From contig JAZDJN010000045.1 of assembly GCA_043803945.1 (NCBI GenBank), positions 1-14,082 on the forward strand: a DNA stretch of 14,082 nucleotides, read 5' to 3'. The stretch is from a bacterium (GTDB lineage Bacteria > Bacteroidota > Ignavibacteria > UBA10030). The notes beneath the pieces were generated by a model. The model ran no database searches and had not been told where the DNA came from. It was given only the letters and a program-made list of their open reading frames with translations. Of this stretch, positions 2 to 14,082 are shown one piece after another (within the stretch, counting starts at the first letter, position 1; each line of letters begins with the position of its first letter). The translations under genes and the position numbers were made by a program.

Positions 2-805
2 AAAATGTGTTAAGAGCGATGTCCCAACAACATGCACCCAATGAAGCTTGTTTTCGCAGAACATGCCAGTCTCGTCAGTGTGAACCGTATCGGCTTGTTT
101 CAGTTGTTGGACAATCTCTTTTTCGGCAGGTTCCACTTTCTTGTGAAGCTCTTGCGTCCAATTCAGAAGTGTGCCTTGAGATATCTCGATATGAAACATA
201 TTCCGAAGAAGTTCTTGAGTTCGTTTCAATGGTATCAGTTGATACTGCATCAGGTATAGTGCCAAGCTTTTGATGTTTGTCCCATACTGTATGTTCTTCT
301 CAATGCCTTCGGGAAACGGTGCAATGATAATTTCTCCGCAACGTGGACATTGTTTCTCGTCGCTTTGATGTTCAGTATATTCGATCCGTGGCAATGGAAT
401 ATCAATCACTTGACGTCGATGCGTTCGGCGAACCGGAACGCATTTCAATGAGCAACCGCATGAACATCGATCAACAGCATGGGGAATGATTTCGTCAGGT
501 GTCTTCGTCATAGCAAGTGTCGAGCCTTTGTGTCCGAGTTGGCCGCCAGATGAGCGATTACTTTTCGCACGTGTGGGGGTGATGACTCGTTTCAATCCGT
601 CGCTCGATGGTGGCTTGTTGCTGTTTTGGCTGTCCTGATTCTTCTGCGCTTGTAACTCTTTAAGTTGTTCATTCAGTGTTTGAATTATCCCGCGCAGTTT
701 ACTGATGATTTCACCTTGTGAGACAATGATCGAGACGATCACTTCGGGGTTGCCTTTACAAAGTCTAAGTAATTCTTCTGGCGTATGTGTCGTGTGTGCT
801 TCCAC
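2..805 (-). CDS. tnpC: IS66-family transposase (single-ORF ISBst12-like type), 5' part; runs off the left edge
   Basis: Manual minus-strand translation is open from GTG at 805 (alternative GTG at 811) to the edge. It shows a coiled-coil N-terminus, then QDSQNSNKPPSSDG, GGQLGHKGSTL, a zinc-finger region CSCGC...CPRCG, QYG...LYLMQYQLIP, ISQGTL, and the first catalytic motif HTDETG...WVHV. All are typical of IS66 transposases. The start codon is uncertain. Confidence 0.92.
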   Translation of the reverse strand, partial: MEAHTTHTPEELLRLCKGNPEVIVSIIVSQGEIISKLRGIIQTLNEQLKELQAQKNQDSQNSNKPPSSDGLKRVITPTRAKSNRSSGGQLGHKGSTLAMTKTPDEIIPHAVDRCSCGCSLKCVPVRRTHRRQVIDIPLPRIEYTEHQSDEKQCPRCGEIIIAPFPEGIEKNIQYGTNIKSLALYLMQYQLIPLKRTQELLRNMFHIEISQGTLLNWTQELHKKVEPAEKEIVQQLKQADTVHTDETGMFCENKLHWVHVVGTSLLTHF

Positions 806-831
806 ATACACAACATATAAAGTGTTTCTTT

Positions 832-861
832 TCAGCCATAGGCTGATGAGCCTTTGGCTCA
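832..861. repeat. 30-bp double-hairpin unit inside the IS66 leader
   Basis: TCAGCC-ATA-GGCTGA + TGAGCC-TTT-GGCTCA, two perfect 6-bp stems with 3-nt loops. A related copy lies at 9670-9699. Confidence 0.85.
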
Positions 862-928
862 AATGTACAAGGGTTAAATGAACTTTTTTAAAAATATCTT
901 TGTGCTGTGTAGTTACAAAGAAACAATG

Positions 929-1035
929 TGTCACACCGGAATGCTTTAATCCGGTGTCCAGTGCCTTAATTAAGCACTTTTCTGGATTCCGGTTAGAAGA
1001 TTACCTGCCTCGCCGGCAGGCGGGCCGGAATGACA
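929..1035. repeat. REP-like inverted doublet (TGTCA..CCGG-N11-CCGG..TCCAG) with a 21-bp palindromic insert at 1004-1024
   Basis: Unit 1 (929-961) is TGTCACACCGG-N11-CCGGTGTCCAG. Unit 2 (982-1035, inverted) reads TGTCATTCCGG-N11-CCGGAATCCAG once CCTGCCTCGCCGGCAGGCGGG is removed. The spacer GTGCCTTAATTAAGCAC is itself a hairpin. Confidence 0.8.
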
Positions 1036-1157
1036 GTGCACTAGTTTTCTTTTTAGTCAGACCCATAAAGGGGAGGTCAAAAACAAGATTAATCATTCCA
1101 ATCTTACAGGTTCTTCTTCCTGCGTAACATGGGTTGCCCTTTCTTTTTATTCTTCAC

Positions 1158-1237
1158 ATTCTTTCATTCCCTTATTCTCATATTCCTTCATTCCCATATT
1201 TCCACATTTCCATATTCCCACATTTTCATATTCTCCT
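1158..1237. repeat. Degenerate 8-bp tandem repeat, 10 units (ATT followed by 5 mostly pyrimidine bases)
   Basis: ATT recurs at exact 8-bp period at 1158, 1166 ... 1230: attctttc, attccctt, attctcat, attccttc, attcccat, atttccac, atttccat, attcccac, attttcat, attctcct. Confidence 0.9.
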
Positions 1238-3645
1238 CATTCTACTTTCCATTCATACAATCCCATAGAAAAATTTTCTGCCATCTGAATTTCCATCTTC
1301 AACGCGGTAGTCTTGATCGGTTTGAATTTCACTATGCTCATTCGATCTTTTACGATTTCGAAGGGAGTTGTTGGTTCAACCGGTTTCCATTCACCCTGTT
1401 CATTATAGAAAAGCTTCCAGGATGCAGGGAGCCGGCATTCGCCAATTCCGGTATCATCAAACCAATATACTTCAGATTTTGAAACTGTTTCTTCTTTCTT
1501 AAACGCATATTGAATCCACGCCGTCTTTCCCTTCGTTGGCCACCAGTGGAGAAACGGGATATTGTGATCGATGGAGCTGATCGGCTCCAACTGATCGTTG
1601 ATTGCATCGGTTCGTTTTCTCTCCGATGCCGTCGCCTTGCTTGTGTACGCAATTGTGGGTGCAGGCAATGCTCTGGCCGCAGATGGTGTTCGGGCAGTCC
1701 AGACTGTCATTGGAGACAATCCCCGATGCGCCCAGGCATAATAAGGAATCATCGTGATCTCCTGCTCGGGATCGGAAACAATCGAGCCTGTCAGGGTCTT
1801 ACGAACCGGACTCGCCTTTGCTTTCAGAACCTGGACACCATTTAACAGATCGGCCTTGAATTGAGTCTTGACCGATGATGCATCGTTCAGGACAAAGTTC
1901 AGAGCATACCCGTTGGCATTATCGACTCCCTCAGTGCAAAAAACGACTGGGCCGCGCTCCAGCGCTACACGTCCTGCATTTGTCTTCAGGTTCTTATGCG
2001 CAACCAGTCGATGGATCTCCATCGGAAAATTGATCCGGACAACATCACCTTTCTTCCAGTTCCGTTTCAGGACTGCATAATTCTTCTCCAACCTGAACGC
2101 AGTGCGTTTTCCATTAATCGTAATCTCAATATTCTTTTTCACCGGTTCCAAATATGTATAGAGGTCGCTTGGAACGGGACGGTTCTGAACCCAGCCGGGG
2201 ATTCGAACATTCAACGCAAAGAGTCCTTCATTGTCGGGGTACACTGTAAGCTTTACAGCCCCATCCCATGGATAGAGCGTCTCTTGTTTCAATGTGATGA
2301 CACGGTCCAGAGTCTTGATCGTCGCATCGCTGCCAATAAAGAGATTGACAAAGACAGTGTTCCCCTGTGTTGCATAGAGATAGCCCGGCAGCGAGGCGAT
2401 AAAGCGAAGCACATTGGGCGGGCAGCAGGCGCAGCTAAACCATTCGGATCGGTTTTCACCTTTGAATGATTCGAGCCGGTTTGGATAGAAAAATTTATCA
2501 CCGCTCATTCCCACGCCCGACAGAAACGCATTATACATCGTGCGTTCAATGATATCCACATACCGAGCATCGCCATGCAGAAGAGCCATGCGTTGATTCC
2601 AGAGGACATTCGCAATGGAGGCACACGTTTCACAATAGGCACTCAGGTTCGGCAGTTCATACGGGTGACTGAAGCCTTCATTGCCGCCCGAGGCACCGAT
2701 ACCGCCGGTGCTATAGAATTTCGTTCCGATCACATCCGCCCATACCTTATCAAGCACACGCACCAGCGATTGATCACCGGTCAGCGCTGCGACATCAGCC
2801 ATACCGGAATAGAGATACATTGCCCTCACTGCATGGCCGACTGCTTTATCCTGATCACGAACCGGTTTGTGGTCCTGCGCATAATCTCCCATGAGTTCAT
2901 GCCCTTTGGCGTTTCCCCGTTCGTCGATAAAGAACTTTGCAAGATTCAGATATTTTAATTCGTCGGTGGCGAGATAGAGTTTGCACAGTCCGATTTCAAT
3001 CTCTTCATGTCCGGGTACTTCACCACGTTTTCCCGGGCCGAAGGTCTCACACAAGAGATTGGCATTCTTGATTGCCACGTTGAGCAGCGTGCGTTTGCCC
3101 GTCGCATAGAAATGTGCCACAGCTCCTTCGTAGAGATGACCGACATTATACAGTTCATGGCTGCCGTCTTTAATACCGATCCACCTTTCTTTTCCGCCGG
3201 GCGGCTGGTAATCCTCGCGAATTAATTTTCGAGCGGTATAGAGATAGCCGTCGGGTTCCTGAGCCTGTGCAATGATCGCGATGATTGAATCAAGATAACG
3301 ATTAACCGTTGTATCAGGATGAGTGGCCAGTGAGTATGATGCACCTTCAATCGCCTTATAAACGTCTGAGTCGTTAAAGTGATATCCGGTGAATTTTCCA
3401 TGCTTCAATCCTGCAGCAATTGAAAAGTTATCGATGCGGCCGGTTTCTTCGGACTTCTTAAAATTATGGGGAAGCGTTACTCTCCTGTTTGTCTCGATTC
3501 GTTTCGACCAGAATTGATCGGTTACCTTCACCAAGGTAAATGGGACAGGCTGAACGGGGTAGCCCTTTCCCCAGTGTTGTCCATTGACCATGATGGTTGA
3601 GAACAGAGAGAGGCAGCAAAGAACTACGATGAATCTCTTTTGCAT
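1237..3645 (-). CDS. Secreted GH127 beta-L-arabinofuranosidase (HypBA1-like) with a C-terminal discoidin/F5-8C-like beta-sandwich domain
   Basis: Motifs FNDSDVYK, HELYNVGH, GHEEIE, GHAVRAMY, YCETCA and WFSCACCPPN (Cys/Zn active-site pattern of GH127). Start reassigned to ATG 3645 (MQKRFIVVLCCLSLFSTIMVNGQ, signal-peptide-like, preceded by GAAAGG), giving 802 aa. Confidence 0.92.
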   Translation of the reverse strand: MQKRFIVVLCCLSLFSTIMVNGQHWGKGYPVQPVPFTLVKVTDQFWSKRIETNRRVTLPHNFKKSEETGRIDNFSIAAGLKHGKFTGYHFNDSDVYKAIEGASYSLATHPDTTVNRYLDSIIAIIAQAQEPDGYLYTARKLIREDYQPPGGKERWIGIKDGSHELYNVGHLYEGAVAHFYATGKRTLLNVAIKNANLLCETFGPGKRGEVPGHEEIEIGLCKLYLATDELKYLNLAKFFIDERGNAKGHELMGDYAQDHKPVRDQDKAVGHAVRAMYLYSGMADVAALTGDQSLVRVLDKVWADVIGTKFYSTGGIGASGGNEGFSHPYELPNLSAYCETCASIANVLWNQRMALLHGDARYVDIIERTMYNAFLSGVGMSGDKFFYPNRLESFKGENRSEWFSCACCPPNVLRFIASLPGYLYATQGNTVFVNLFIGSDATIKTLDRVITLKQETLYPWDGAVKLTVYPDNEGLFALNVRIPGWVQNRPVPSDLYTYLEPVKKNIEITINGKRTAFRLEKNYAVLKRNWKKGDVVRINFPMEIHRLVAHKNLKTNAGRVALERGPVVFCTEGVDNANGYALNFVLNDASSVKTQFKADLLNGVQVLKAKASPVRKTLTGSIVSDPEQEITMIPYYAWAHRGLSPMTVWTARTPSAARALPAPTIAYTSKATASERKRTDAINDQLEPISSIDHNIPFLHWWPTKGKTAWIQYAFKKEETVSKSEVYWFDDTGIGECRLPASWKLFYNEQGEWKPVEPTTPFEIVKDRMSIVKFKPIKTTALKMEIQMAENFSMGLYEWKVE

Positions 3646-3692
3646 ATGGTTGAACCTTTCATCCACTGATATTGGTTCCCTGTTTATTATTG

Positions 3693-3727
3693 ACCCCCTT
3701 TTCAATTTCCCCCTAAGAGGGGGAATT
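3693..3727. repeat. REP-like hairpin TTCCCCCT-AAG-AGGGGGAA preceded by a C-run
   Basis: 8-bp perfect stem at 3707-3714/3718-3725 in the DUF89-GH127 spacer. Confidence 0.6.
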
Positions 3728-3765
3728 AGATAAAGTGTGATATCCAATAAGAAAAAAAAGAGCTG

Positions 3766-4635
3766 TCACACTTCTCCGCCTGCCGGTGGTTTATGACGGA
3801 AGACAATATCACCGGTGCGCACCCCAAGCGCTCTGCTGACAACATCACACTTTGCCTTAAGGAGAAAATAGAAATTATGCGGAAAGTCGATACAGGTCTC
3901 GAAATTGCCATGTCCTTTTGCCAGAATCACCTCTGCCTGGTTGAGGGCATCGAGAAATTCTTCGCTGGAATTTGAAAGATTGATTCCTATATCGGCTGAT
4001 CCCGTTGTAATCGTCGGTACAAGAGAGGTGATTCCCGCTTGCTGTGCATCTTTCATTGTTGCATCGTTAATGATCGGCCCGGACTTCACACAAAATGTCA
4101 CTTCAACATTGTTCGCAAGCAACTGCTCAACAAGAACCCGGTCAAACACGATCTCGCCGGCATTATCCCCAAGATAGAGGAGCTTCCTTCCCGGGCGGAG
4201 TTCCTGCCTGAACTCCTCAAGATGATCGATGGCAAAGGAGGTCGAGGCCAGCCTGCGAACATCTTCCGCAAGATTGTACTCGTGCCCGATTCCCAGATCA
4301 ATCACATTCCCCGCGACAGCAACATGAATTGCCGTCTTCAGAGGATCCTGTGATTCGGCGATCATGCGTTCAATATCCGGAAGAATCCCGATGGCTTCCT
4401 GATTGCTCTGCTTCTTTGCTTCCCGATAAGGATCCGCAACACCGGTGACATCTGACACTAGCGAGTAAACATGCCTGGACACCATTGCAGGAGATTGAGT
4501 CATATCAATAGACTCAATCCCCGCTGCAATCCTATTCAGAATTTCACGGTGTGCTTCCTCATGGGGAGTTGCAAGCCGTGCCGTGTTCAGTCCCTGCTTA
4601 AAGAGGCAGAGAAGGCATTCAAGTTCAGATTTCAT
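3766..4635 (-). CDS. DUF89/ARMT1-like damage-control metal-dependent phosphatase
   Basis: N-terminal CxxC (ECLLC), DPYREAKKQSN, AGNVID, DNAGEIVFD, PIINDAT, KGHGNFE and LKAKC, 289 aa. Confidence 0.9.
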   Translation of the reverse strand: MKSELECLLCLFKQGLNTARLATPHEEAHREILNRIAAGIESIDMTQSPAMVSRHVYSLVSDVTGVADPYREAKKQSNQEAIGILPDIERMIAESQDPLKTAIHVAVAGNVIDLGIGHEYNLAEDVRRLASTSFAIDHLEEFRQELRPGRKLLYLGDNAGEIVFDRVLVEQLLANNVEVTFCVKSGPIINDATMKDAQQAGITSLVPTITTGSADIGINLSNSSEEFLDALNQAEVILAKGHGNFETCIDFPHNFYFLLKAKCDVVSRALGVRTGDIVFRHKPPAGGEV

Positions 4636-4661
4636 GGTGACCGTGCCGCTTTTCGTACTTC

Positions 4662-6146
4662 TTATGCGAACCGTGGATACTCAGTTGGATAGAGAATCCC
4701 GTTCGGCAGGTTTGCCGTGAGATCGCTGACCCCGATCAGATGCATGGCGTTCCAGAGCACAGGACCGTTGTGAACAAAGGCAACGGCCGTATGGTGCGGA
4801 AACCGCTTTTCCAGCAATCCGTAACGATAAAAGCGCGCCATCTCCTTCACGGCGAAGACGGCGATACAGCCAAACGACTTCGGATCGATGTTCAGAATTT
4901 CTCCTTCGGCAACATAAGCTTTCAACTCCGCTTCGGCAGTCGATTGCAGCCGGAAGATAGTCATGTCGCCCGGGCGGATTGTTCCTTCGAGCGTTCCGCG
5001 TGTAATGTTGGGCGGTTTTCCCGGCTCCATAAGCCGGTGCATAATGAGCTGATAATTCATCGAACAGGAAGCCATGCATGACGAGGATGTGTTTCCGCAG
5101 TGGAATCCCATAAAGAGATCATTGTTGTTGTAGCTGCCGATGTCCGGTTTCGCCTGCTCATACATATCCTTCGGCACCGTGTTATTGATATCCAGGATCG
5201 CCGCGGGCATATTGCTTGCACACGTGCAGATATATTCGCTCAAGGCACCATAGATATCGGATTCACATGAGATCGGTATTCCATGTGTTGCCAGGCGTGA
5301 ATTGATAAAGCAGGGGACGAACCCGAAATATTTTTCAAATGCCGGCCAGCATTTATTGGCAAAGACACCATACCGCGAGGCACCGAGATTCTTCTCCATG
5401 TAATCGAGCAGAGAAAGCTCGAACTGGGCGAGCGGCTCCAGCAAATCCGGATAGATATTTCCCTTTCCTAGCTCGCCGGCCATTTCCGCCGCGATCGTTT
5501 TTATGCGCGGATCACCTTTCTTCGAAAGAAAGAGATCGTACATATCGAGCTCGCTGTTCTCCATAATCTCCACTCCAAGATTATAGAGCGGCTTGATGGG
5601 CGCATGGCAGGTGAGAAAATCGAACGGACGCGGGCCGAAGGAAAAGATTTTCAGGTTCTTCAATCCGACAACGACCCTGGCAATGGGAATAAACTCCCGT
5701 ATCATCTCTGCCACTTCATCCGCCGTGCCGACGGGATTCTGCGGGAGGTGAACACGCAGGTTCCGCAAGCCAAGATTATAGGAAGCGCTGAGAAGCCCGC
5801 AGTACGCATCGCCGCGATCGCCGTACAAATCGTTTGCTGTTTCTTCCGCTGCTGCGGCAAACATCGCCGGTCCGCCGAACTTTTGTGCCAGCAGTGTGGC
5901 CGGGCCCTCCGGTCCAAAATTGCCAAGATAGACTACCAGCGCGTTAACATTGAGCTGCAGGAGTTCATCCAGTGCTTTCAGTACGTCGGTCTCGTTTTCC
6001 ACAACAGTTTGAATTTCTACAACGGGAATCGCTTTCGCTTTGCATTCTTCAACAACCTTGATTCTGCGCTTTCGGGAAAGTTCGCTCGGAAAGCAATCTC
6101 TGCTCACTGCAACAATCCCTACAGTCATTACCGGTATGTTTCTCAT
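4662..6146 (-). CDS. L-fucose/L-arabinose isomerase superfamily protein; probable L-arabinose isomerase by context
   Basis: 494 aa with VSRDCFP, YLGNFGPE, RGDAYCG, KCWP, CESDIYG, GFHCGN and FPHH, consistent with FucI/AraA-fold metal ligands. It starts 3 bp after the araD stop. Confidence 0.85.
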   Translation of the reverse strand: MRNIPVMTVGIVAVSRDCFPSELSRKRRIKVVEECKAKAIPVVEIQTVVENETDVLKALDELLQLNVNALVVYLGNFGPEGPATLLAQKFGGPAMFAAAAEETANDLYGDRGDAYCGLLSASYNLGLRNLRVHLPQNPVGTADEVAEMIREFIPIARVVVGLKNLKIFSFGPRPFDFLTCHAPIKPLYNLGVEIMENSELDMYDLFLSKKGDPRIKTIAAEMAGELGKGNIYPDLLEPLAQFELSLLDYMEKNLGASRYGVFANKCWPAFEKYFGFVPCFINSRLATHGIPISCESDIYGALSEYICTCASNMPAAILDINNTVPKDMYEQAKPDIGSYNNNDLFMGFHCGNTSSSCMASCSMNYQLIMHRLMEPGKPPNITRGTLEGTIRPGDMTIFRLQSTAEAELKAYVAEGEILNIDPKSFGCIAVFAVKEMARFYRYGLLEKRFPHHTAVAFVHNGPVLWNAMHLIGVSDLTANLPNGILYPTEYPRFA

Positions 6147-6149
6147 AGA

Positions 6150-6854
6150 TCATCTCCTCTTTTTCTGCCCATAGTATGCATTAGTTCCATGTTTTCGGTT
6201 ATAATGTTTGTCGATCAGTGTCTGCTTCAGGCGGGGTGTGCTGCCGTCGATGATCAATGTCATCAAGGCAATCTTAGCAATCTCTTCAAGGAGCAGGCAG
6301 TGTTCGACCGCTTTCTCCGGAGAGGCCCCCCAGGCAAACGGACCGTGGCATGCCACGAGCACCATCGGCATATCCTGGTATGAGAGATTTGAAAACCGCT
6401 GAACAATCAGGTTGCCGGTCTCCTCTTCATAATCTCCCTTGATCATCTCATCGCTCATCACCCTTGTGCATGGGATATCCATCGCGGCAAGATCGGCGTG
6501 GGTTGTTCCCAGAATTGGGATGGGCTTCATCGCCTGAGCCCAGGCAACAGCATTCGGTGCATGAGCATGGGCGACGCCGCCTATCTCCGGAAAATCACGA
6601 TAGAGAACGGCATGCGTTTTTGTGTCAGACGAGGGACGCAGCTTCCCATCAATGAGCCGCAGGTTTAGATCGAGGACCACCATATCATCCACATCAATTT
6701 CATTATAGGGCACTCCGCTTGGCTTGATAGCAAAGATGCCTTCGTTCCGATCGATCGCACTGACATTGCCGAATGTCAGCGGTGTCAATCCCGATTTTGC
6801 CAGGGCAAGATTATTTTTCCATGCCCGCTTTTTCAATTCCTGAATTGACCCCAT
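6150..6854 (-). CDS. araD: L-ribulose-5-phosphate 4-epimerase
   Basis: FGNVS, IKPSG, PSSDTKTH, HxH, GTTHAD, YEEETG, HGPFAWG and C-terminal DKHYNRKHGTNAYYGQ. Confidence 0.95.
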   Translation of the reverse strand: MGSIQELKKRAWKNNLALAKSGLTPLTFGNVSAIDRNEGIFAIKPSGVPYNEIDVDDMVVLDLNLRLIDGKLRPSSDTKTHAVLYRDFPEIGGVAHAHAPNAVAWAQAMKPIPILGTTHADLAAMDIPCTRVMSDEMIKGDYEEETGNLIVQRFSNLSYQDMPMVLVACHGPFAWGASPEKAVEHCLLLEEIAKIALMTLIIDGSTPRLKQTLIDKHYNRKHGTNAYYGQKKRR

Positions 6855-6855
6855 G

Positions 6856-8544
6856 CTATTTCCTCTCCTTCATTGTTTGATCCTCAATAAATTCTGCCAG
6901 ACGGTTATACCGCTCATAGAGAACACGATACTTCTCGGCGTATTCCCGGCGCGGATGGTATACGATATCGAAGCCGCTGTCCATTGCCGTTGTTGCAGCT
7001 TCAACCGTCGGATACAAGCCTGCTGCCGTGGCAGCAAACATCGCAGCACCGAGTGCACAGGTTTGCTCGGACTTTGGAACACTGATCGGCACATCCAGCA
7101 CATCGGTAACGATTTGCATGATGAACGGCGATTTCTTTGCGACACCGCCGATGGCAATGACACCGTCGATGCGCACTCCTTCAGATCGAAACCGTTCGAT
7201 AATTTTCTTCGCTCCAAAAGCCGTTGCCTCCACCAGTGCCCGGAATATCCTCGGAGTATCGCTGCCCAGGTTCAGTCCGGTAATAGCTCCCTTCAATAAT
7301 TGATTTGCATCGGGAGTACGGCGGCCATTCATCCAATCCAGAGCAAGAATGCCTGAAGTCTCCACCGGAATATTCTCCGCTGCTGCAGAGAGCTCATCTA
7401 TTATAGTGTCTGATACTTCTTTGATGAGTTGTTCTCGTTGATTGACTGGCAACGATGAACTTTTTGTCAGGATGTGTTCTACCGGCCAGAGTAAAACGTC
7501 CTTGAACCAAGCATAGACATCGCCGAAGGCCGACTGGCCTGCTTCAAGGCCGATGAGGCCCGGAATGATCGATCCATCAACTTGTCCGCAAATACCTCTG
7601 ACCGTCCGCTCGCCAACATCCTCAGTCGGTGCCACAAGCATATCGCAGGTCGATGTTCCCATAATTTTGGTCAACACGTACGGTTGAATTGCAGCGCCCA
7701 CCGCACCCATATGCGCATCGAATGCCCCAACACCGATAGTAACATTCGTGGTCAATCCAAGCCGCTCGGCCCATTCTTGTGTGAGTGTGCCGACAGCAAC
7801 ATTGCTTGTGAAGGTCTCGGTGAATAATCGAGCACGCACACCGGTTAATAATGGATCGAGTTTCCGGAGAAATTCTTCAGCCGGCAATCCGTTGAACGAA
7901 GGGTGCCACATCGCTTTATGGCCGGCAGCACAGCGGCTTCGTTTCATTGTCAACGGATCGGTCTTGCCGGTAAGAAGAGCGGGAATCCAGTCGCAATGTT
8001 CAACCCATGAAAACGCTGCCTCGCGGATTTCCGGAGCAGCCCGGAGGACATGCAGAATCTTTGCCCAGAACCACTCCGACGAATAGATGCCACCTTCGAA
8101 CTTTGTATAATCGATGCCGCCCCAGATCCGGGCAAGCCGGTTGATCTCCTCCGCCTCCTGAACGGCGGTGTGATCTTTCCAGAGCACAAACATAGCATTC
8201 GGATTCTCACTGAAACCAGACAGCAGCGAGAGGGGTGTTCCATGCTCATCAACCGGACCGGGTGTCGAGCCGGTTGTATCGACTGAGAGTCCAATGACAT
8301 GTTCGGGCACATCCGGAGCAGCGCTCATCAATGCCGAGCGAATGGATTCTTCGAGTCCCTCGATGTAATCAAGCGCATGCTGGCGAAATTGATTCTTCAC
8401 CGGATCGCAGTATTTGCCCTCTCCCCACCGCCGGTATAGCGCAACGGCACTGGCAATTTCGGTACCATTCATCGCATCGACAATAACCGAGCGGACAGAG
8501 TCCGTTCCATAATCAACTCCAATGACATAGTGATGTGTGCTCAT
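6856..8544 (-). CDS. araB: Ribulokinase (FGGY family)
   Basis: IGVDYGTDSVR, DTTGST, LWKDHTA, GGIYSSEWFWAK, CAAGHKAMW, GTSTCD, EAGQSAFGD and DWMNGRRTP. Start reassigned to ATG 8544 (MSTHHYVIG, GGTGG upstream) to avoid overlap with the LacI gene, giving 562 aa. Confidence 0.95.
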   Translation of the reverse strand: MSTHHYVIGVDYGTDSVRSVIVDAMNGTEIASAVALYRRWGEGKYCDPVKNQFRQHALDYIEGLEESIRSALMSAAPDVPEHVIGLSVDTTGSTPGPVDEHGTPLSLLSGFSENPNAMFVLWKDHTAVQEAEEINRLARIWGGIDYTKFEGGIYSSEWFWAKILHVLRAAPEIREAAFSWVEHCDWIPALLTGKTDPLTMKRSRCAAGHKAMWHPSFNGLPAEEFLRKLDPLLTGVRARLFTETFTSNVAVGTLTQEWAERLGLTTNVTIGVGAFDAHMGAVGAAIQPYVLTKIMGTSTCDMLVAPTEDVGERTVRGICGQVDGSIIPGLIGLEAGQSAFGDVYAWFKDVLLWPVEHILTKSSSLPVNQREQLIKEVSDTIIDELSAAAENIPVETSGILALDWMNGRRTPDANQLLKGAITGLNLGSDTPRIFRALVEATAFGAKKIIERFRSEGVRIDGVIAIGGVAKKSPFIMQIVTDVLDVPISVPKSEQTCALGAAMFAATAAGLYPTVEAATTAMDSGFDIVYHPRREYAEKYRVLYERYNRLAEFIEDQTMKERK

Positions 8545-8555
8545 AAGACCACCGA

Positions 8556-9590
8556 TTAATCCTGATAATATTTGAGATTGTCCTTCGTGAGAATATCGAG
8601 CGGCATCATCAGGCACTTCTCCACCTTTTCGCGCAGAACGATATTACTATAGAGGCTGTATATCCCTTCATAGCCCTGCATGTGCGGCCGCTGGCTGATA
8701 AGAAATTCGATCGCTCCGCGCCGAAGGAGGCGTACGTTGCGCGAGATCAGATCGTAACCGATGACAACAACACTCCCCGCCCGGTTCTCTTTCTCCAAAT
8801 ACTCCGCAAAGGGGAATGTGTAGGAATTCGAAACGAAAATTCCTTTGAGGTCGTTGTAGGTGGAGACAATAGTTGCCGCAAGCCGTTGAAACGCGCGTTC
8901 ACCCAGCGAGCTGTCCGCCTCTGTCAAGACAACGTTAATTCCCTTACAGTTCTCCATCCCGGATTGAAATCCTCTGATGCGCTCGTTGATGTGGAAATCT
9001 TCAGGATTCACTTTCACCGCAACGACTGTGCCGCCGGAATTCACCATTCTCCGGATCAGATGCGCCGCAAGCAGCCCGCCTTGAAAAGGATCCTGAATCA
9101 CACAGGAGAGACTGTTCGATTCCGGGATTGTTGAATCGACAAAGACATAGGGGATCTGTTTTGGAATGGATTGCAAAAGGTCAGACGCAAAATGCGAGAT
9201 GACAGGAGCGATCAGGATCCCTTCGGGATGGTTCTGAAGAGCCTTTCGAAATGTCGACCGGATGGAGGGCTCGGAGTAGCGATCGAAGCAGTAGAAATCG
9301 ACATTGACTTTAAATGACTCCAGCTCCTGCTGCGCCTTACGAATGCCCTGAGCCAGAATGTTCCAGTACCCAGTGTCCTGATTCAGTTTCGGAATCAGGA
9401 CGGCAAAATGGTACGACATCGCCAGCGAAAGATTGCGCGCATAGATATTTGGCCGATAGTCGAGCCGCGCAACGATCTTTTCAATTTTCTTTTGCGTCTC
9501 TTTGGCTACACGGCCGCGCTTGTGAAGTACACGGTCGACAGTTCCTTGAGAGACACCCGCTTTTCTTGCGATATCCTTGATGGAAACCAT
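8556..9590 (-). CDS. LacI-family transcriptional regulator with periplasmic-binding-protein-like sugar domain
   Basis: N-terminal HTH SIKDIARKAGVSQGTVDRVLHKRGRV, hinge YRPNIYARNL and C-terminal IGYDL...FLISQRP. Confidence 0.93.
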   Translation of the reverse strand: MVSIKDIARKAGVSQGTVDRVLHKRGRVAKETQKKIEKIVARLDYRPNIYARNLSLAMSYHFAVLIPKLNQDTGYWNILAQGIRKAQQELESFKVNVDFYCFDRYSEPSIRSTFRKALQNHPEGILIAPVISHFASDLLQSIPKQIPYVFVDSTIPESNSLSCVIQDPFQGGLLAAHLIRRMVNSGGTVVAVKVNPEDFHINERIRGFQSGMENCKGINVVLTEADSSLGERAFQRLAATIVSTYNDLKGIFVSNSYTFPFAEYLEKENRAGSVVVIGYDLISRNVRLLRRGAIEFLISQRPHMQGYEGIYSLYSNIVLREKVEKCLMMPLDILTKDNLKYYQD

Positions 9591-9663
9591 ACGTGCTAAC
9601 TATCCTTGAGAACTTGACGTTATTTCGCAAGAGCCCTGACACAAAAGAATAGACTAAGAATTA

Positions 9664-9783
9664 AACCGCTGCACCGGAGGCGCATCAGCCTTTGGCTGAA
9701 AAGTTCGCCAAGGACACCAAGGAAGAGAAATCAGATATTTGGATTCTTTCTCACCTTACTTATTCTTGGCGCTCTTGGCGGTT
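9664..9783. repeat. Inverted-repeat element (CGCCAAG 9-mer type) with a 30-bp double-hairpin insert at 9670-9699
   Basis: The left arm without the insert, AACCGCAAAGTTCGCCAAG, matches the reverse complement of 9765-9783, AACCGCCAAGAGCGCCAAG, at 16/19. The insert is TGCACC-GGA-GGCGCA + TCAGCC-TTT-GGCTGA. Confidence 0.8.
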
Positions 9784-9812
9784 GGGCCTTTTCTTCAAGC
9801 TTTCTGAATCTA

Positions 9813-11567
9813 TTATCCGACGAAATAGAAATAAGCAGCAAGAATCAGCACAAGCACCATCGCTGAGGCGAAGACATCGCCTGTAGTCCAGCTTGACCTC
9901 GATTGTTTCCGATCTTCGTCTCCCGTTGTAGCAAAGGTGAGTCCGCTGATCTTCTCATGCGACGGCGCTTCGGTCGCATAACTCACGGCAACCATCACTA
10001 CAACACAGACGATAAAAATGAGGAGACTGTAATATTGGAAGAAGATGTGGTTCATGATCCAGAAGAAGGAGCCGGGAGCATATGTAAATCCGCTAATCAA
10101 CTTTACCGGTGTATCGATCGCCAGGCGGAAGAGTCCCAGTGCAAAACCGGTGAGCAGCGCTGCAAGGCACCCTTTGGCATTCAAACGTTTATTGAACACA
10201 CCGAGAAAGAATACAACAAAAATCGGCGGCGCCAGATAAGCTTGCAGCCCCTGAAGATAATCGTACAAACCCTTGCCGCCCTGGATGACCGGTATCCAGA
10301 GAAGGCCGATCAACACCATCACTCCCGTTGCCACTCTTCCAATCCAAACTAACCGATGTTCACTCACATTCGGGCGCAGGCGTGAATAGAAATCGATGGT
10401 GAAGAGTGTTGAGCAGGCGTTGAACGCTCCTGCTAATGAACTCATCAATGCCGCCAGCAATCCTGCGACAACGATGCCGCGAATTCCGACAGGCAGGACA
10501 TACGCAACGAGAAGAGGAAATGCCTGCTGCGCCTGATCGCGAATAATTGTGCCATCGGCACCAATCAATTGATGCTGCAGTTCTGGAATCTTACCGCTCT
10601 TCGCCAGGGCGAAGCAGATAATACCCGGGATGATAAAGATAAAAACCGGCAACAGTTTAAAAAATGCTGCTGCAATGGAGCCGCGGCGCGCTTCCCGTTC
10701 ATTCGGCGCACCAAGTGTGCGCTGCACAATATATTGATCGGTGCACCAGTACCAGAGTCCGATGATCGGCGCACAGAACAACATGCCAAGCCATGGATAG
10801 TTGTCGTTGAAATACCATGCCATCTTCCCCGCTTCCTTTACCGGAGCCCACGTTCCTTCGACACCGGCAGGCACCAGCGGTTTCCAGAGGTTGAACATAT
10901 CGGCATTGACAATTGCCCGCAGTTCAGACCACCCGCCGAGAGCCTGAAGTCCGAACACTGTCACCAGCGCCGAGCCGATGATAAGAATAATAGTTTGCAA
11001 CGCCTCTGTGTATGCCACAGCGCTCATGCCGCCAACGATAGTGTAGATCCCGGTAATCACGATAACAAGGATGGAGCCGATCCAGAAGCTATCCATCCCC
11101 ATGAAATTCATTTCAGGAAGAAGCACGGAGAACACGACACCTCCGGCGTAGATACCGACGGCAATCTTCGTGAGGACATAGGCAACGAGAGAGATGACCG
11201 ACAGGACGGTGCGTGAAGTGGAAGAGAACCGGCGTTCGAGAAATTCCGGCATGGTAAACACTTTCGACCGCATGTAGAAGGGCACCATCACCCAGCCCAG
11301 CACGAGCAGGCACCATGCATGCAATTCATAGTGGGCCATGGCAACGCCGTCTGTTGCGCCCGAGCCTGCCAATCCGACCAGATGTTCCGAGCCGATATTG
11401 GAAGCAAAGATCGAAGCCCCGACAACAAACCAGCCCAGGTTGCGGCCGGCAAGAAAATAGTGAGTCGAGGTGTCCTGTTGTTTCCGAATGACCCACCACG
11501 CGAGACCAATCACGACGCTAAAGTACCCGGCGATGGCGATCCAGTCGAGTGTCTGTAGTGTTCCCAT
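9813..11567 (-). CDS. Sodium:solute symporter (SSS/SLC5, vSGLT-like); probable arabinose/pentose importer
   Basis: YFLAGR, ASNIGSEHLVGLAGSG, TMPEFLERRF, WYWCTDQYIVQR, GLLAALMSSL and many hydrophobic segments. AAGGA RBS upstream. The substrate is inferred from context. Confidence 0.93.
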   Translation of the reverse strand: MGTLQTLDWIAIAGYFSVVIGLAWWVIRKQQDTSTHYFLAGRNLGWFVVGASIFASNIGSEHLVGLAGSGATDGVAMAHYELHAWCLLVLGWVMVPFYMRSKVFTMPEFLERRFSSTSRTVLSVISLVAYVLTKIAVGIYAGGVVFSVLLPEMNFMGMDSFWIGSILVIVITGIYTIVGGMSAVAYTEALQTIILIIGSALVTVFGLQALGGWSELRAIVNADMFNLWKPLVPAGVEGTWAPVKEAGKMAWYFNDNYPWLGMLFCAPIIGLWYWCTDQYIVQRTLGAPNEREARRGSIAAAFFKLLPVFIFIIPGIICFALAKSGKIPELQHQLIGADGTIIRDQAQQAFPLLVAYVLPVGIRGIVVAGLLAALMSSLAGAFNACSTLFTIDFYSRLRPNVSEHRLVWIGRVATGVMVLIGLLWIPVIQGGKGLYDYLQGLQAYLAPPIFVVFFLGVFNKRLNAKGCLAALLTGFALGLFRLAIDTPVKLISGFTYAPGSFFWIMNHIFFQYYSLLIFIVCVVVMVAVSYATEAPSHEKISGLTFATTGDEDRKQSRSSWTTGDVFASAMVLVLILAAYFYFVG

Positions 11568-11738
11568 AGGAGATTCCTTCCGGAGTTAATATGAAACAGA
11601 ATGTAAAGATCGAATCATGGTATTGTCGATGAAGCGTGTGAGAAATGAACGATCGATATCATGACTGCTGCAGTGTCGAGCAGGGGTGATATCACAGGGT
11701 GGGTGTGTGCTGACGACCCACTGGGATTTTTGTGCCGT

Positions 11739-11767
11739 AAGTTGCGTGTCCGTACACGCAAAAGCAA
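11739..11767 (-). promoter_or_regulatory. Candidate LacI operator (11742-11761) within a candidate sigma70 promoter for the symporter-ara operon
   Basis: Palindrome TTGCGTGT-CCGT-ACACGCAA has 8-bp perfect arms and a central CG typical of LacI operators. The minus strand reads TTGCTT-17bp-CAACTT around it. Confidence 0.65.
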
Positions 11768-11800
11768 GAAAAATTTTTGTGGGCGCCTATTTTAAAGAAT

Positions 11801-12110
11801 TGCCGCCAAGTGCACCAAGAAAAAATGTGGGAGTTTTCGACGCTCCCGCGCCGGATTGCTAAACGCACAAAACCTTTTCTCCCTCACTCTTAATCCCTCT
11901 CCCATCAACGGGAGAGGGTGTGCCCGCCCGCCTGACCGCATGCGGTCGGGCGGGCGGTGAGGGCGTTCCGCGAATACTGAATGCCTAAATCGTCTGCATT
12001 AATTGTTCTCTTCGCCCCCGGCGGGGACGCCTTCAAGCCAGGGAAGTTTTTAAATACAATAGACACTTATTCCGACGATTCTATATTTGACGCTTGGCGT
12101 CTTGGCGGCA
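11801..12110. repeat. 310-bp element bounded by inverted repeats TGCCGCCAAG/CTTGGCGGCA, enclosing nested hairpins
   Basis: Perfect 10-bp inverted repeat at 11801-11810 and 12101-12110, the same CGCCAAG type as 9664-9783. Inside are CCCTCAC(11881)...GTGAGGG(11963), the hairpin CCCTCTCCC/GGGAGAGGG (11895-11918), and a 34-bp palindrome with one mismatch (11924-11957). Confidence 0.75.
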
Positions 12111-12114
12111 TATT

Positions 12115-13317
12115 TTATTTTGTCGAAAAGCTATACACCGTCGTCGACCTGTATGTCTCACCCGGATTCAGTGTAGTCGTTGGGAAATCCGGTTTGTTCG
12201 GCGAATCGGGATAATGCTGTGTCTCCAGGCAGAATCCATATCGATGCTGGTAAGCCTTCCCCCCTTTTCCGATATTCGATCCATCGAGAAAATTGCCGGA
12301 ATAGAATTGCAAACCCGGCTCGGTAGTAAAAACCTCCATAATACGTCCACTCGTTTTCTCCCAGACGCTCGCTGCGAGAAGAAGTTGATCGCGAACAATG
12401 ACCTCACGCTGATGAATTGAATCATTCTTCACCGACTGAAACTCTACGAGACGAGCTTGAACCTGATTCAGCACCCAGTTATGATCGTATCCTTTGCCGA
12501 AGGTGAGCTGCTCATCTTTGACATCGATTCGTGTTCCAATAGCCGTCGGTGTTCGAAAATCCATTGGTGTATCTTTTACGGAACGCAGTTCTCCAGTCGG
12601 AATAAGACCCTCATCGATCGGAGTAAATCGGTCGGCGTCGATTGTCAACTCGTGGTTGAGAATATTGCCTGATCCGGCACCTGCGAGATTGAAATACGAG
12701 TGATGCGTCAGATTCACAACGGTCGGTTGGTCTGTAGTGGCAATATAGTCGATCTTCAGGGAATTGTCTTCCGTGAGCGTATAGACCACTTCTACCGTCA
12801 ATGTGCCGGGGTATCCCTCTTCGCCATCATTGCTGATATAACTCAGAACGAGTGTCTGGCCGGGAACGCTCTTCTGTTCATTGACAGTCCAGAAGACCTT
12901 ATCGAATCCCACGACTCCTCCGTGCAGTGTATTGGCTCCGTTGTTCACAGCGAGTGTGTACTCCTTGCCATTCAGTGTGATCTTTCCTTTCCCGATTCTG
13001 TTTCCATAGCGGCCTATCAGCGCACCAAAGTATGGGTTGCCCTTGAGGTAATGACTCAGAGAATCGAATCCAAGCACAATATCGGCGAGCTTATTATTTT
13101 TATCGGGTACAAGCAGTGAGACGACGATGCCGCCGTAGTTGGTAATCTTCGCTTCCATCCCTTTTTGATTCTTCAATGTGTACAGATACACCTCTTTACC
13201 ATCCGGCAAAATGCCGAAATTTTCTTTCTTCATGGCAGACTCCTTTTTCCCCGAGCAATCGGTAAACAGAAATGCGGCAAACACCAAACAAGCCAGCAAC
13301 GCAGCGGTCATTTTCAT
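12115..13317 (-). CDS. galM: Aldose 1-epimerase (mutarotase) with a probable lipoprotein signal peptide
   Basis: GRYGNRI, LHGG, DGEEGYPG, NLTHHSYFNL, GYDHNW, QFYSGNFL and FCLETQHYPDSPN. The N-terminus is hydrophobic and ends FTDC-SGKKE. GAGG RBS upstream. Confidence 0.95.
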   Translation of the reverse strand: MKMTAALLACLVFAAFLFTDCSGKKESAMKKENFGILPDGKEVYLYTLKNQKGMEAKITNYGGIVVSLLVPDKNNKLADIVLGFDSLSHYLKGNPYFGALIGRYGNRIGKGKITLNGKEYTLAVNNGANTLHGGVVGFDKVFWTVNEQKSVPGQTLVLSYISNDGEEGYPGTLTVEVVYTLTEDNSLKIDYIATTDQPTVVNLTHHSYFNLAGAGSGNILNHELTIDADRFTPIDEGLIPTGELRSVKDTPMDFRTPTAIGTRIDVKDEQLTFGKGYDHNWVLNQVQARLVEFQSVKNDSIHQREVIVRDQLLLAASVWEKTSGRIMEVFTTEPGLQFYSGNFLDGSNIGKGGKAYQHRYGFCLETQHYPDSPNKPDFPTTTLNPGETYRSTTVYSFSTK

Positions 13318-13361
13318 TGGTTACCTCTTACGTAGATTGTTATCATTGCCCAACAAATTCT

Positions 13362-13489
13362 CCACGGATGGCACACCGAATTACCCCGTTCAACGGGGTG
13401 AACACAGATAATGGTCCTATTTGTTACTTCTTCTTACAGAATATCACACTATTGACCTTACTCGATGATTATCCGTGTGCCATCAGGGG
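13362..13489. repeat. Inverted-repeat element (GATGGCACAC type) with a palindromic insert in the left arm
   Basis: Removing 13377-13405 gives CCACGGATGGCACACAGATAAT, which matches the reverse complement of 13468-13489 (CCCCTGATGGCACACGGATAAT) at 19/22. The insert contains ACCCCGTT-C-AACGGGGT. Confidence 0.78.
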
Positions 13490-13501
13490 TTAACTATTTA
13501 T

Positions 13502-13513
13502 CTGAGCAGTTAC
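13502..13513 (-). mobile_element. Isolated IS66-like terminal sequence GTAACTGCTCAG
   Basis: Matches the IS66 end at 905-916 at 10/12, in the same orientation. No transposase or nearby partner end is visible. Confidence 0.45.
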
Positions 13514-13612
13514 AGTGAGACATAGAATAGTGGCATATGTAGATCCGGGAAAAACCTACAGCCAAATAAGTTGAAAATCAACTGTGCGGATCACAATGAA
13601 ACCTCACCCCCG

Positions 13613-13647
13613 TCTCACTTCTCACTTTTTACTTCTCACCGTCTTAC
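13613..13647. repeat. Short 7-bp tandem repeat (TCTCACT-like, about 5 units)
   Basis: tctcact tctcact ttttact tctcacc g tcttac. Confidence 0.7.
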
Positions 13648-13659
13648 AAAAGAATGCTC

Positions 13660-13687
13660 TTGCTTCTCATTTGTACGATGTTATATT
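13660..13687 (+). promoter_or_regulatory. Candidate sigma70 promoter of the integrase
   Basis: TTGCTT (13660-13665), 16-bp spacer ending in TG-n, then TATATT (13682-13687), 23 bp before the ATG. Confidence 0.55.
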
Positions 13688-13710
13688 GCTGTCACCTTTT
13701 AAGAGAAGCC

Positions 13711-14082
13711 ATGCAACCGTTGGCAACAAACACTCCGCAAAATAATCGGAACAATCTTCAGCCCATTCCTGGCAAGGGGAGTCGACCGAAGTTAATGGAT
13801 CAACTTCGCGAAGCATTACGTTCCCGTCATTATAGCCGGCGTACGGAGGAATCGTACGAGCAGTGGGTGAAACGTTTCATTCATTTCCATAACATACGCC
13901 ACCCATCGGAGATGGCCGAACCGGAGATTAACGCTTTTCTTACACATCTGGCTTTAAAAAAACATGTGAGCGCTTCGACGCAAAACCAGGCTCTTTCCGC
14001 GATCCTCTTTCTTTACCGCTATGTTCTCAACCGTGAGATAGGCAGTCTTGGTGAAGTGATACGGGCGCGGAAGTCCAATTAT
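13711..14082 (+). CDS. intI: Integron integrase (IntI-like tyrosine recombinase), N-terminal part; runs off the right edge
   Basis: Manual translation gives ...PKLMDQLREALRSRHYSRRTEESYEQWVKRFIHFHNIRHPSEMAEPEINAFLTHLALKKHVSASTQNQALSAILFLYRYVL...VIRARK, the characteristic IntI N-terminal SAM-like domain. The catalytic domain and the IntI-specific insertion are outside the window. The start is ATG 13711 or 13795. Confidence 0.88.
   Translation, partial: MQPLATNTPQNNRNNLQPIPGKGSRPKLMDQLREALRSRHYSRRTEESYEQWVKRFIHFHNIRHPSEMAEPEINAFLTHLALKKHVSASTQNQALSAILFLYRYVLNREIGSLGEVIRARKSNY

Follow-up and report, generated by a model that had tools for sequence, protein, structure and literature searches.

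Tiny hairpin modules nested within other structured repeats of an Ignavibacteria genome suggest an overlooked class of miniature mobile DNA

Intergenic repeats that are interrupted by small palindromes raise the question of whether such hairpins are modules in their own right, which enter or leave other structured repeats, or whether they belong to the repeats that carry them. The question is posed here by a contig of 14,082 nucleotides (nt) from a bacterium of the Ignavibacteria (assembly GCA_043803945.1, contig JAZDJN010000045.1), the entire length of which is referred to as the window; the contig is designated C45, and other contigs of the draft genome (5.54 Mb, 118 contigs, G+C content of 46.5%) are numbered likewise. 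An earlier note on the window proposed that four palindromes interrupt four different host repeats as mobile inserts, and all four features are intergenic. Analyses of the window, the genome, and other genomes reveal discrete hairpin modules with exact borders, which occur as filled and empty paralogs, in many hosts, and across genomes and phyla. The findings suggest an overlooked class of miniature mobile DNA.

The first insert, a palindrome of 21 nt of the CCTGCC..GGCAGG type at 1004-1024, resembles the commonest insert family of the genome (F1, described below) and is located in host A, a multi-copy repeat at approximately 917-1130. Host A comprises two hairpins that resemble the NTS/SRM repeats of Ssn nucleases on the basis of a relaxed Ssn-motif frame and an alignment of 18 host copies: GTCACACCGGA..TCCGGTGTCCAG at 930-961 on the plus strand, and GTCATTCCGG..CCGGAATCCAG at 982-1034 on the minus strand, inverted relative to the first. 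Since the hairpin at 982-1034 holds the insert, the latter sits within an Ssn-motif-like hairpin doublet. Alignment of filled and empty copies showed that the site is empty in 13 of the 18 copies (..AGAAGATT|GCCGGAATGAC..) and filled in 5, the copies of C45 and C31 carrying an identical insert of 21 nt and those of C14, C98, and C85 carrying related GC-rich hairpins; the junction is ambiguous by 2-3 nt. The same palindrome is found elsewhere in the genome on C31, C32, C54, and C85. Furthermore, a second site 13 nt upstream carries CCTGCCTG..CAGGCAGG hairpins of 21-35 nt between CTGGATTC and CGG in 6 copies, and in other host A copies the loop of the 930-961 hairpin contains either an F5 insert of 30 nt or a combined F5+F6 insert of 30+47 nt. 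Separately, a repeated module at 1067-1128 has 8-11 copies in the genome.

The second insert, at 9670-9699 on the plus strand, is a double hairpin of 30 nt, TGCACC-gga-GGCGCA followed by TCAGCC-ttt-GGCTGA, which belongs to family F3 and interrupts a diverged copy of host C, as determined from empty paralogs. The remainder of this copy (9706-9780) consists of inverted GCCAAG-type arms at 9706-9722 and 9766-9780 with an AT-rich spacer between them, identified from inverted matches and alignment, and arms related to host C are also found as inverted matches at 11803-11824 and 12093-12111. Elsewhere in the genome, host C is present in at least 11 empty copies (..AATCAAACCAC|AAAGTTCACC..) with a junction overlap of 0 nt. 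In this genome, 16 intact F3 copies were found by regular-expression census; BLAST gave 18 copies and the order-wide pattern census 19. Their left flank is CCAC or CCGC. The window contains an additional F3 variant of 30 nt at 832-861 on the minus strand, TGAGCC..GGCTCA followed by TCAGCC..GGCTGA, which was identified from the regular-expression census, an inverted match to 9678-9703, and alignment, and which precedes the ATG (811) of an IS66-family transposase gene by 21 nt.

The remaining two palindromes differ in kind. PAL-D, a palindrome of 20 nt at 13381-13400 with the core ACCCCGTT c AACGGGGT, is located inside host E, a repeat of approximately 140 bp at 13355-13493 that has terminal inverted repeats and at least 12 copies and thus resembles a miniature inverted-repeat transposable element (MITE). 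Among 15 aligned host E loci, 11 contain PAL-D, so that the filled form is the majority form; 2 have intact flanks without PAL-D (C47 and C103), and 2 are devoid of that part of the host. A third PAL-D-empty copy is found at C87:294242, and host copies without PAL-D have a CCTGCC-type hairpin at another position, between CTCCAC and GGATGAC. PAL-C, a GC-rich palindrome of 34-36 nt at approximately 11922-11957 with four genome copies, lies within the nested hairpin of host D (11881-11963), whose outer arms CCCTCAC/GTGAGGG are at 11881-11887 and 11957-11963 and whose inner hairpin, CCCTCTCCC..GGGAGAGGG, is at 11894-11918. The 34-nt palindrome is 95% self-complementary; the host parts were delimited by alignment of eight loci, and PAL-C itself by self-complementarity and alignment. 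Four host D copies without PAL-C hold 15-40 nt of another, AT-rich linker at its position; therefore, PAL-C represents a replacement rather than a clean insertion. Three of the four interruptions described in the earlier note are accordingly borne out by host copies lacking exactly the inserted bases (1004-1024, 9670-9699, and 13381-13400), and the fourth is recast as an exchanged linker. The filled form is not the fixed consensus of the repeat in hosts A and C, where empty copies abound, but it does prevail for PAL-D.

The same pattern was sought in the whole repeated fraction of the genome (9,641 intervals, 1.62 Mb) by self-BLAST (40,533 alignments), and filled and empty sites were called where chained collinear alignments had one copy with 10-120 extra bases at a point. 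The 438 filled/empty pairs obtained genome-wide collapsed into 139 filled sites, which comprise 23 multi-member insert families and 36 singletons. The elements are very small hairpin-forming pieces of 19-47 nt. F1, the commonest insert, is 19-20 nt long and reads CCTGCCTGC(C)GGCAGGCAGG, also given as CCTGCCTGC..GCAGGCAGG; F1b (35 nt) has the F1 stem with a structured loop; F2 (36-37 nt) reads CCCGCCTGCC..GGCGGGCAGG; F3 (30 nt) consists of two abutting hairpins; F4 (24 nt) reads TCCGCC..GGCGGACAGG; F5 (30 nt) has two hairpins; F6 is 47 nt long; and F10 is 25 nt long. By BLAST, this genome contains 44 copies of F1 (19- and 20-nt forms combined) and 28 of F4, and exact copies of F1 number 32. Furthermore, CCTGCCTG is the most frequent perfect 8-bp hairpin stem of the genome (48 of 4,939 hairpins).

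One family occupies many hosts, as expected of discrete insertions or of precise deletions: F1 is found at 23 filled sites in 14 flank contexts, F3 at 10 sites in 4, F4 at 9 sites in 5, and F1b at 7 sites in 5. Conversely, one host site may be empty or hold different families, as in host A and in the repetitive extragenic palindromic (REP) sequence of a gene on C72 for a REP-associated tyrosine transposase (RAYT), whose site may hold nothing, F10, or an F2 element of 37 nt. The elements are also nested among themselves: F3 can hold F4 between its two hairpins, F4 can hold F1, and F5 can hold F6, resulting in composites of up to 115 nt. At least 10 families take part in the nesting, which reaches up to three or four levels. 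Additionally, F3 units enclosing an F4-like hairpin are repeated in tandem with a 99-bp period at C102:55698-56084 and C60:19229-19745, and both arrays reach contig ends.

The inserts fold far better than their controls, with a median folding energy per nt of -0.25 compared with -0.04 for random segments (drawn from the repeated fraction or the whole genome) and -0.10 for shuffled inserts; half of the inserts (50%) fold at -0.25 or lower vs 0.2-0.3% of random segments and 3.2% of shuffled inserts. F1 copies lie within other repeats far more often than random positions do: 25 of the 32 exact copies adjoin paralogous sequence on one side or both, and 19 of these on both, vs 42 and 20, respectively, of 200 random non-ORF positions, where the crude mask of long open reading frames (ORFs) covers 90% of the genome and is uninformative on coding vs non-coding location. 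Junction overlap is 0-2 nt at 113 of the 139 sites (chance expectation, 132), and no fixed target duplication was found. When the insert was deleted and the remainder folded, the junction fell at a hairpin loop or loop edge at 53 of the 139 sites (38%), sites that are not independent of one another, vs 23% of control positions.

Beyond this genome, the 30 relatives compared with the window DNA all belong to other genera, with genes at approximately 70% DNA identity. When metagenomes were queried with the aldose epimerase gene of the window (12115-13317), 80 loci were recovered, the best of them sharing just 61% protein identity, and a search for public sequencing runs that contain positions 4083-14082 of the window listed none. 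Named records that have repeats in common with this genome are from Ignavibacteriota and Bacteroidota. Within the order, F1 is present in 46 of 121 genomes at 1-28 copies each, with 32 in this genome, and F3 in 15 of 121 at 1-5 copies each, with 19 in this genome, whereas backwards-pattern controls of F1 and F3 gave no match in any of the 121 genomes. The F1 and F3 counts of this genome are the highest in the order sample, and at 5.5 Mb it is also the largest of 19 genomes of its family, the other 18 being 2.3-4.4 Mb.

The distribution of F3 is wider still, and its pattern, GGCGCATCAGCCTNTGGCTGA, matches at least 107 stretches in a one-genome-per-species collection, a few of which are chance matches within coding sequence. 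Among the matches listed, to which all context counts below refer, 110 occurrences with flanks include 91 complete double hairpins in 83 distinct contexts with the same 30-nt borders, in records, closed chromosomes included, named as Ignavibacteriota, Bacteroidota, Chloroflexota, several Patescibacteria groups, Gammaproteobacteria, Rickettsiales, and others. The flanks are unrelated past approximately 3 nt: the base preceding F3 is T or C in 72 of the 83 contexts, mostly as the last letter of TTT or TTC, although this is not fixed, and the right flank mostly begins with GAA, GAT, or AAA. Complementary flanks of at least 6 bp surround F3 in 10 contexts vs 0.7 expected, and T-loop-like flanks, GGTT(C)^RA.., are found in 8.

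F3-type hairpins are also physically associated with small GIY-YIG nuclease genes and tRNA genes. In the relative L205, a tandem pair of GIY-YIG genes (88-124 aa) is preceded at a distance of 53 nt by two F3 copies, which occupy the D-loop of displaced 5' tRNA-Ser fragments; the intact tRNA that follows represents the empty site. With the L205 protein as query, matches were obtained in 117 of 201 genomes of the class, and 30 loci were kept for a neighborhood census. Of the 30, 8 contain a double hairpin that fits TNNGCC n3 GGCNNA, twice, either perfectly or nearly so, with varying stems (TCAGCC, TGCGCC, TCCGCC, and TGAGCC); all 8 double hairpins lie at most 60 nt from the GIY-YIG gene, inside what remains of the D-loop (GGYTT^RAAYTGG) or the T-loop (GGGTTC^GAATCC) of a tRNA-Ser. 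A tRNA scan of 16 of 31 GIY-YIG loci detected an adjoining tRNA gene in all 16 (15 tRNA-Ser and 1 tRNA-Leu). The small GIY-YIG gene associated with tRNA-Ser also occurs in head-to-tail arrays, with at least 14 copies at a period of approximately 299 bp (G016:C2:365021-369130) and five copies at a 382-bp period (G152:C19:516155-517916).

Candidate enzymes are abundant in this genome. Twelve matches to the Y1_Tnp profile were found, and of seven Y1 ORFs tested, six best match the NCBIfam REP-associated tyrosine transposase (two over the curated cut-off) and one matches the IS200 type. These Y1/RAYT-type genes are each flanked by hairpin repeats of their own, several of which start with GTAG, e.g., GTAGAAGTC... 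GIY-YIG matches number 16, of which 13 are in small ORFs of 65-113 aa, many with flanking hairpins; two of the 13 are broken as read (stops or contig end). The ORF at C112:9366-9587 (105 aa) has a GTCATTCCCACG..GTGGGAATCCAG hairpin on either side, also denoted GTCATTCC, which shares the frame of the Neisseria NTS. Among the insert families, F10 alone flanks a RAYT gene, at C72:16568, where 3 of its 16 copies are within 600 bp. No F3 copy of this genome was found near a GIY-YIG gene in the same 600-bp proximity test, and the F3 copies here therefore look like orphans. Three further observations concern these genes: the 16-mer at 12019-12034, with 10-18 copies, resembles part of the hairpin repeat flanking the C72 RAYT gene; a GIY-YIG gene of 87 aa at C99:20842-21051 seemingly lies within a tRNA gene, the 5' part of which (GGGACGTAGCGCAG..) is upstream and the 3' part (..GGTTCAAATCCCGCCGTCCCGA) downstream; and on C109, approximately 100-200 nt upstream of the GIY-YIG gene 3264-3470, an F2-like CCCGCC..GGCGGGCAGG occupies the D-loop position of a tRNA-gene fragment adjoining an intact copy of that tRNA.

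We consider it somewhat probable that the inserts constitute several families of tiny (19-47 nt) non-coding hairpin elements, similar to REPs and to the small dispersed repeats (SDRs) of cyanobacteria, that are moved in trans as single-stranded DNA (ssDNA) by hairpin enzymes. A hairpin-recognizing nuclease or transposase acting in trans would cut the foot of a hairpin as ssDNA, and the hairpin would be rejoined elsewhere with no target duplication, often landing at, or within the loop of, another extruded hairpin. Modules would in this way enter, or be excised exactly from, the REPs that accompany RAYT genes, Ssn-motif-like hairpins, MITE-like repeats, and each other, and the 12 Y1/RAYT-type proteins and 13 small GIY-YIG (Ssn-like) nucleases of this genome may supply the activity. 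A trans-acting ssDNA enzyme is proposed because one family (F10) is tied to a RAYT gene and one superfamily (the F3 type) to a GIY-YIG gene. That the modules move as ssDNA, which enzyme acts on them, and whether they are inserted or excised are inferred from the pattern of the sites and from gene content rather than shown. The earlier note had suggested an ssDNA-hairpin enzyme such as a RAYT/HUH nuclease; gene content agrees with this suggestion, but most families are unlinked to any such gene, and the physical link of the 30-nt F3 element is to a GIY-YIG gene rather than to an HUH enzyme. A bolder version holds that F3 and its relatives are a pan-bacterial family and the smallest mobile elements seen so far, moved by Ssn-type GIY-YIG nucleases rather than HUH enzymes and aimed at TTY^RAA in tRNA T-/D-loop DNA, and that nested hairpins are the debris of nuclease-hairpin pairs cross-invading their recognition hairpins; it is offered as tentative, and we rate it as possible rather than probable.

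Several results weigh against movement in trans by hairpin enzymes. Nineteen sites have a junction overlap of 4-8 nt, which may reflect another type of event or chaining errors; the loop preference is modest, with 48 of the 139 junctions within predicted stems; and many sites are copies of each other, so that site counts overstate the number of events. Every empty site is a paralog rather than an allele, and replication slippage that precisely removes hairpins would produce an identical picture, insertion and precise excision being indistinguishable. The 14 families other than F10, of 15 examined, total approximately 170 copies, of which just one has any of the 25 nuclease hits within 600 bp; the 600-bp windows around these hits cover 0.65% of the genome. 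The GTAG tag of classical REPs is absent from F1, F2, and F3, and PAL-D likewise ends in neither GTAG nor CGTC. In addition, PAL-D is confined to host E, where its filled form is in the majority, and PAL-C has no clean empty site among the eight aligned host D loci.

Under the main rival, the modules have no dedicated mobility and the repeats are mosaics similar to bacterial interspersed mosaic elements (BIMEs), whose parts are shuffled, gained, and lost via slippage, template switching, and gene conversion at stalled hairpins. This rival accommodates the absence of target duplication and the chance-level microhomology, the lack of a linked enzyme for most insert families, the substitution of a linker by PAL-C in place of the filling of an empty site, the tandem F3+F4 arrays with their 99-bp period, and the 2 nt (AC) with which both PAL-D and its right flank start, which would permit slippage. 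However, it accounts for losses and not for arrival at new, unrelated sites, whereas the 19-20 nt of F1 recur with exact borders in 14 unrelated contexts of this genome and F3 does so in its 83 contexts across phyla; the patchy, low-copy occurrence of F1 over 46 of the 121 genomes also speaks against it. Overall, we regard shuffling alone as unlikely.

Selection on folding offers another explanation, in which the hairpins are parts of structured RNAs (terminators, stabilizers, or regulatory RNAs), i.e., variable stems on a conserved scaffold. The elements are intergenic, hosts such as 917-1064 keep a constant frame while their inserts vary, and the TGCACC/GGCGCA pairing of many F3 copies has an A-C mismatch on one strand that is a G-T wobble on the other. 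This is nevertheless decidedly improbable, since hosts with no sequence relationship share the same insert, which is found in either orientation and also within remnants of tRNA genes. Moreover, a search of the window against Rfam at E-values up to 1 detected no relevant family, its sole weak match being inside a coding region, and the F3 loops do not covary: loop-loop pairing is unsupported, with 21 of 83 contexts complementary vs 27 expected from shuffles. Chance palindromes or errors of metagenome assembly might be suspected in a draft of 118 contigs with several repeat copies at contig ends; such an artefact is extremely improbable in view of the empty backwards-pattern controls, the far poorer folding of random and shuffled controls, and the presence of the same elements in assemblies, closed chromosomes among them, from many unrelated studies and phyla.

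Hairpin elements moved in trans would have precedents in part. As in the REP/REPIN/BIME-RAYT systems, REPINs being REP doublets, the present elements are short imperfect palindromes in many dispersed intergenic copies, 12 RAYT-type genes have their own hairpins, and F10 is a RAYT-flanking REP. The palindrome of a classical REP bears a conserved tag, GTAG (or CGTC), at one of its ends (PMC3733652), whereas F1, F2, F3, F4, and F5 have neither this tag nor a linked RAYT gene. Multi-level nesting of at least 10 families, with hosts that include Ssn-type repeats of another enzyme system, is a further difference. The statement of the earlier note that no described system matches was too strong: the survey of Di Nocera et al. 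(2013, PMC3733652) notes REP families within small palindromes in Anabaena variabilis, Thermomicrobium roseum, and Halothiobacillus neapolitanus, along with many RAYT genes in some genomes, and REPINs are proposed as building blocks of more complex repeats by Bertels and Rainey (2011, PMC3116915).

A second comparison is with the Ssn nucleases (Chenal et al., 2025, PMC11893778), small GIY-YIG proteins (cd10448) associated with NTS/SRM hairpin repeats, next to which ssDNA is cleaved site-specifically; the Neisseria NTS is the hairpin that the single-strand nuclease SsnA recognizes. The relaxed frame GTCAYHCC..GGDRTSCAG matches 75 times in the genome vs 0 for its backwards control, and two of the matches are the host A hairpins at 930-961 (plus) and 982-1034 (minus), a likeness that concerns host A and not the inserts. 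The strict published pattern HGTCWY..RNCYNB, an oriented hairpin whose 5' flank, containing GTC, and 3' flank are both conserved, has 50 genome matches vs 11 for the backwards control and none in the window, where the two hairpins fall outside it because of their long loops (8-11 nt). The single-domain small GIY-YIG gene on C112 with its motif on both sides, and the 13 small GIY-YIG ORFs in total, are Ssn-like. The available text of PMC11893778 contains no report of other elements nested in NTS loops, nor of transposition activity.

Host E is reminiscent of MITEs, which have terminal inverted repeats together with a target-site duplication, in its terminal inverted repeats and at least 12 copies. 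The SDRs of Nostoc, reportedly described by Elhai and colleagues in 2008, are said to be near-identical, hairpin-capable repeats of 21-27 nt that occur in varied contexts, including other repeats, and have no known enzyme. On that description they are close in kind to the present inserts, but they belong to another phylum and have other sequences, and the present case differs in its candidate nucleases, its longer composites, and one family common across phyla. Palindrome-associated transposable elements (PATEs) are derived from IS200/IS605 and do not encode a transposase, their mechanism being that of IS608, with insertion 3' of a fixed short target. F3 resembles them in its two similar hairpins of subterminal type (TNNGCC n3 GGCNNA, twice), in the absence of target duplication, and in the biased base, T or C, 5' of its left end. 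Unlike PATEs, F3 is made up of its two hairpins and nothing else, 30 nt in all, and no IS200/IS605 TnpA gene was found beside it; a GIY-YIG gene is found beside its relatives. A full-text literature search with six hairpin sequences found no report of them.

Multi-copy stretches in the 15-mer profile of the window are nearly all intergenic (926-1155, 9677-9780, 11889-11937, 12019-12111, and 13355-13484). An AT-rich stretch at 1155-1233, directly downstream of the large minus-strand ORF 1237-3747 (836 aa), has an 8/16-nt period of CATATTCC-like units with five overlapping copies of 31 nt, and similar stretches are found on other contigs. The IS66-family transposase gene (2-811, minus strand; NF033517, 131 bits; DUF6444 and zf-IS66) is truncated by the contig start. 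At the opposite end, a gene resembling integron integrases (13711-14082, plus strand; TIGR02249, 113 bits) encodes the N-terminal 124 residues of a tyrosine recombinase and is partial, being truncated by the contig end; its ordinary neighbors are consecutive minus-strand genes of sugar use, assigned from profile and family matches. An integron attC reading, which this gene brings to mind, is not favored given these neighbors, although no search aimed at attC sites was made.

If the hairpins do move, then at 19-30 nt they would rank with the smallest mobile DNA known and be far shorter than either MITEs or REPIN doublets, and hairpin repeats would act as mutual landing pads for one another, which would explain the build-up of mosaic BIME-like intergenic repeats. 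Such elements break assemblies, as indicated by the several repeat copies at contig ends, and may confuse gene calling. Whether Ssn nucleases merely cut hairpins or also spread them is left open in the available text of PMC11893778. F3, which ranges from Patescibacteria to Bacteroidota and Chloroflexota, together with its GIY-YIG link at tRNA-Ser genes, provides a concrete substrate for asking whether Ssn-type nucleases spread hairpins.

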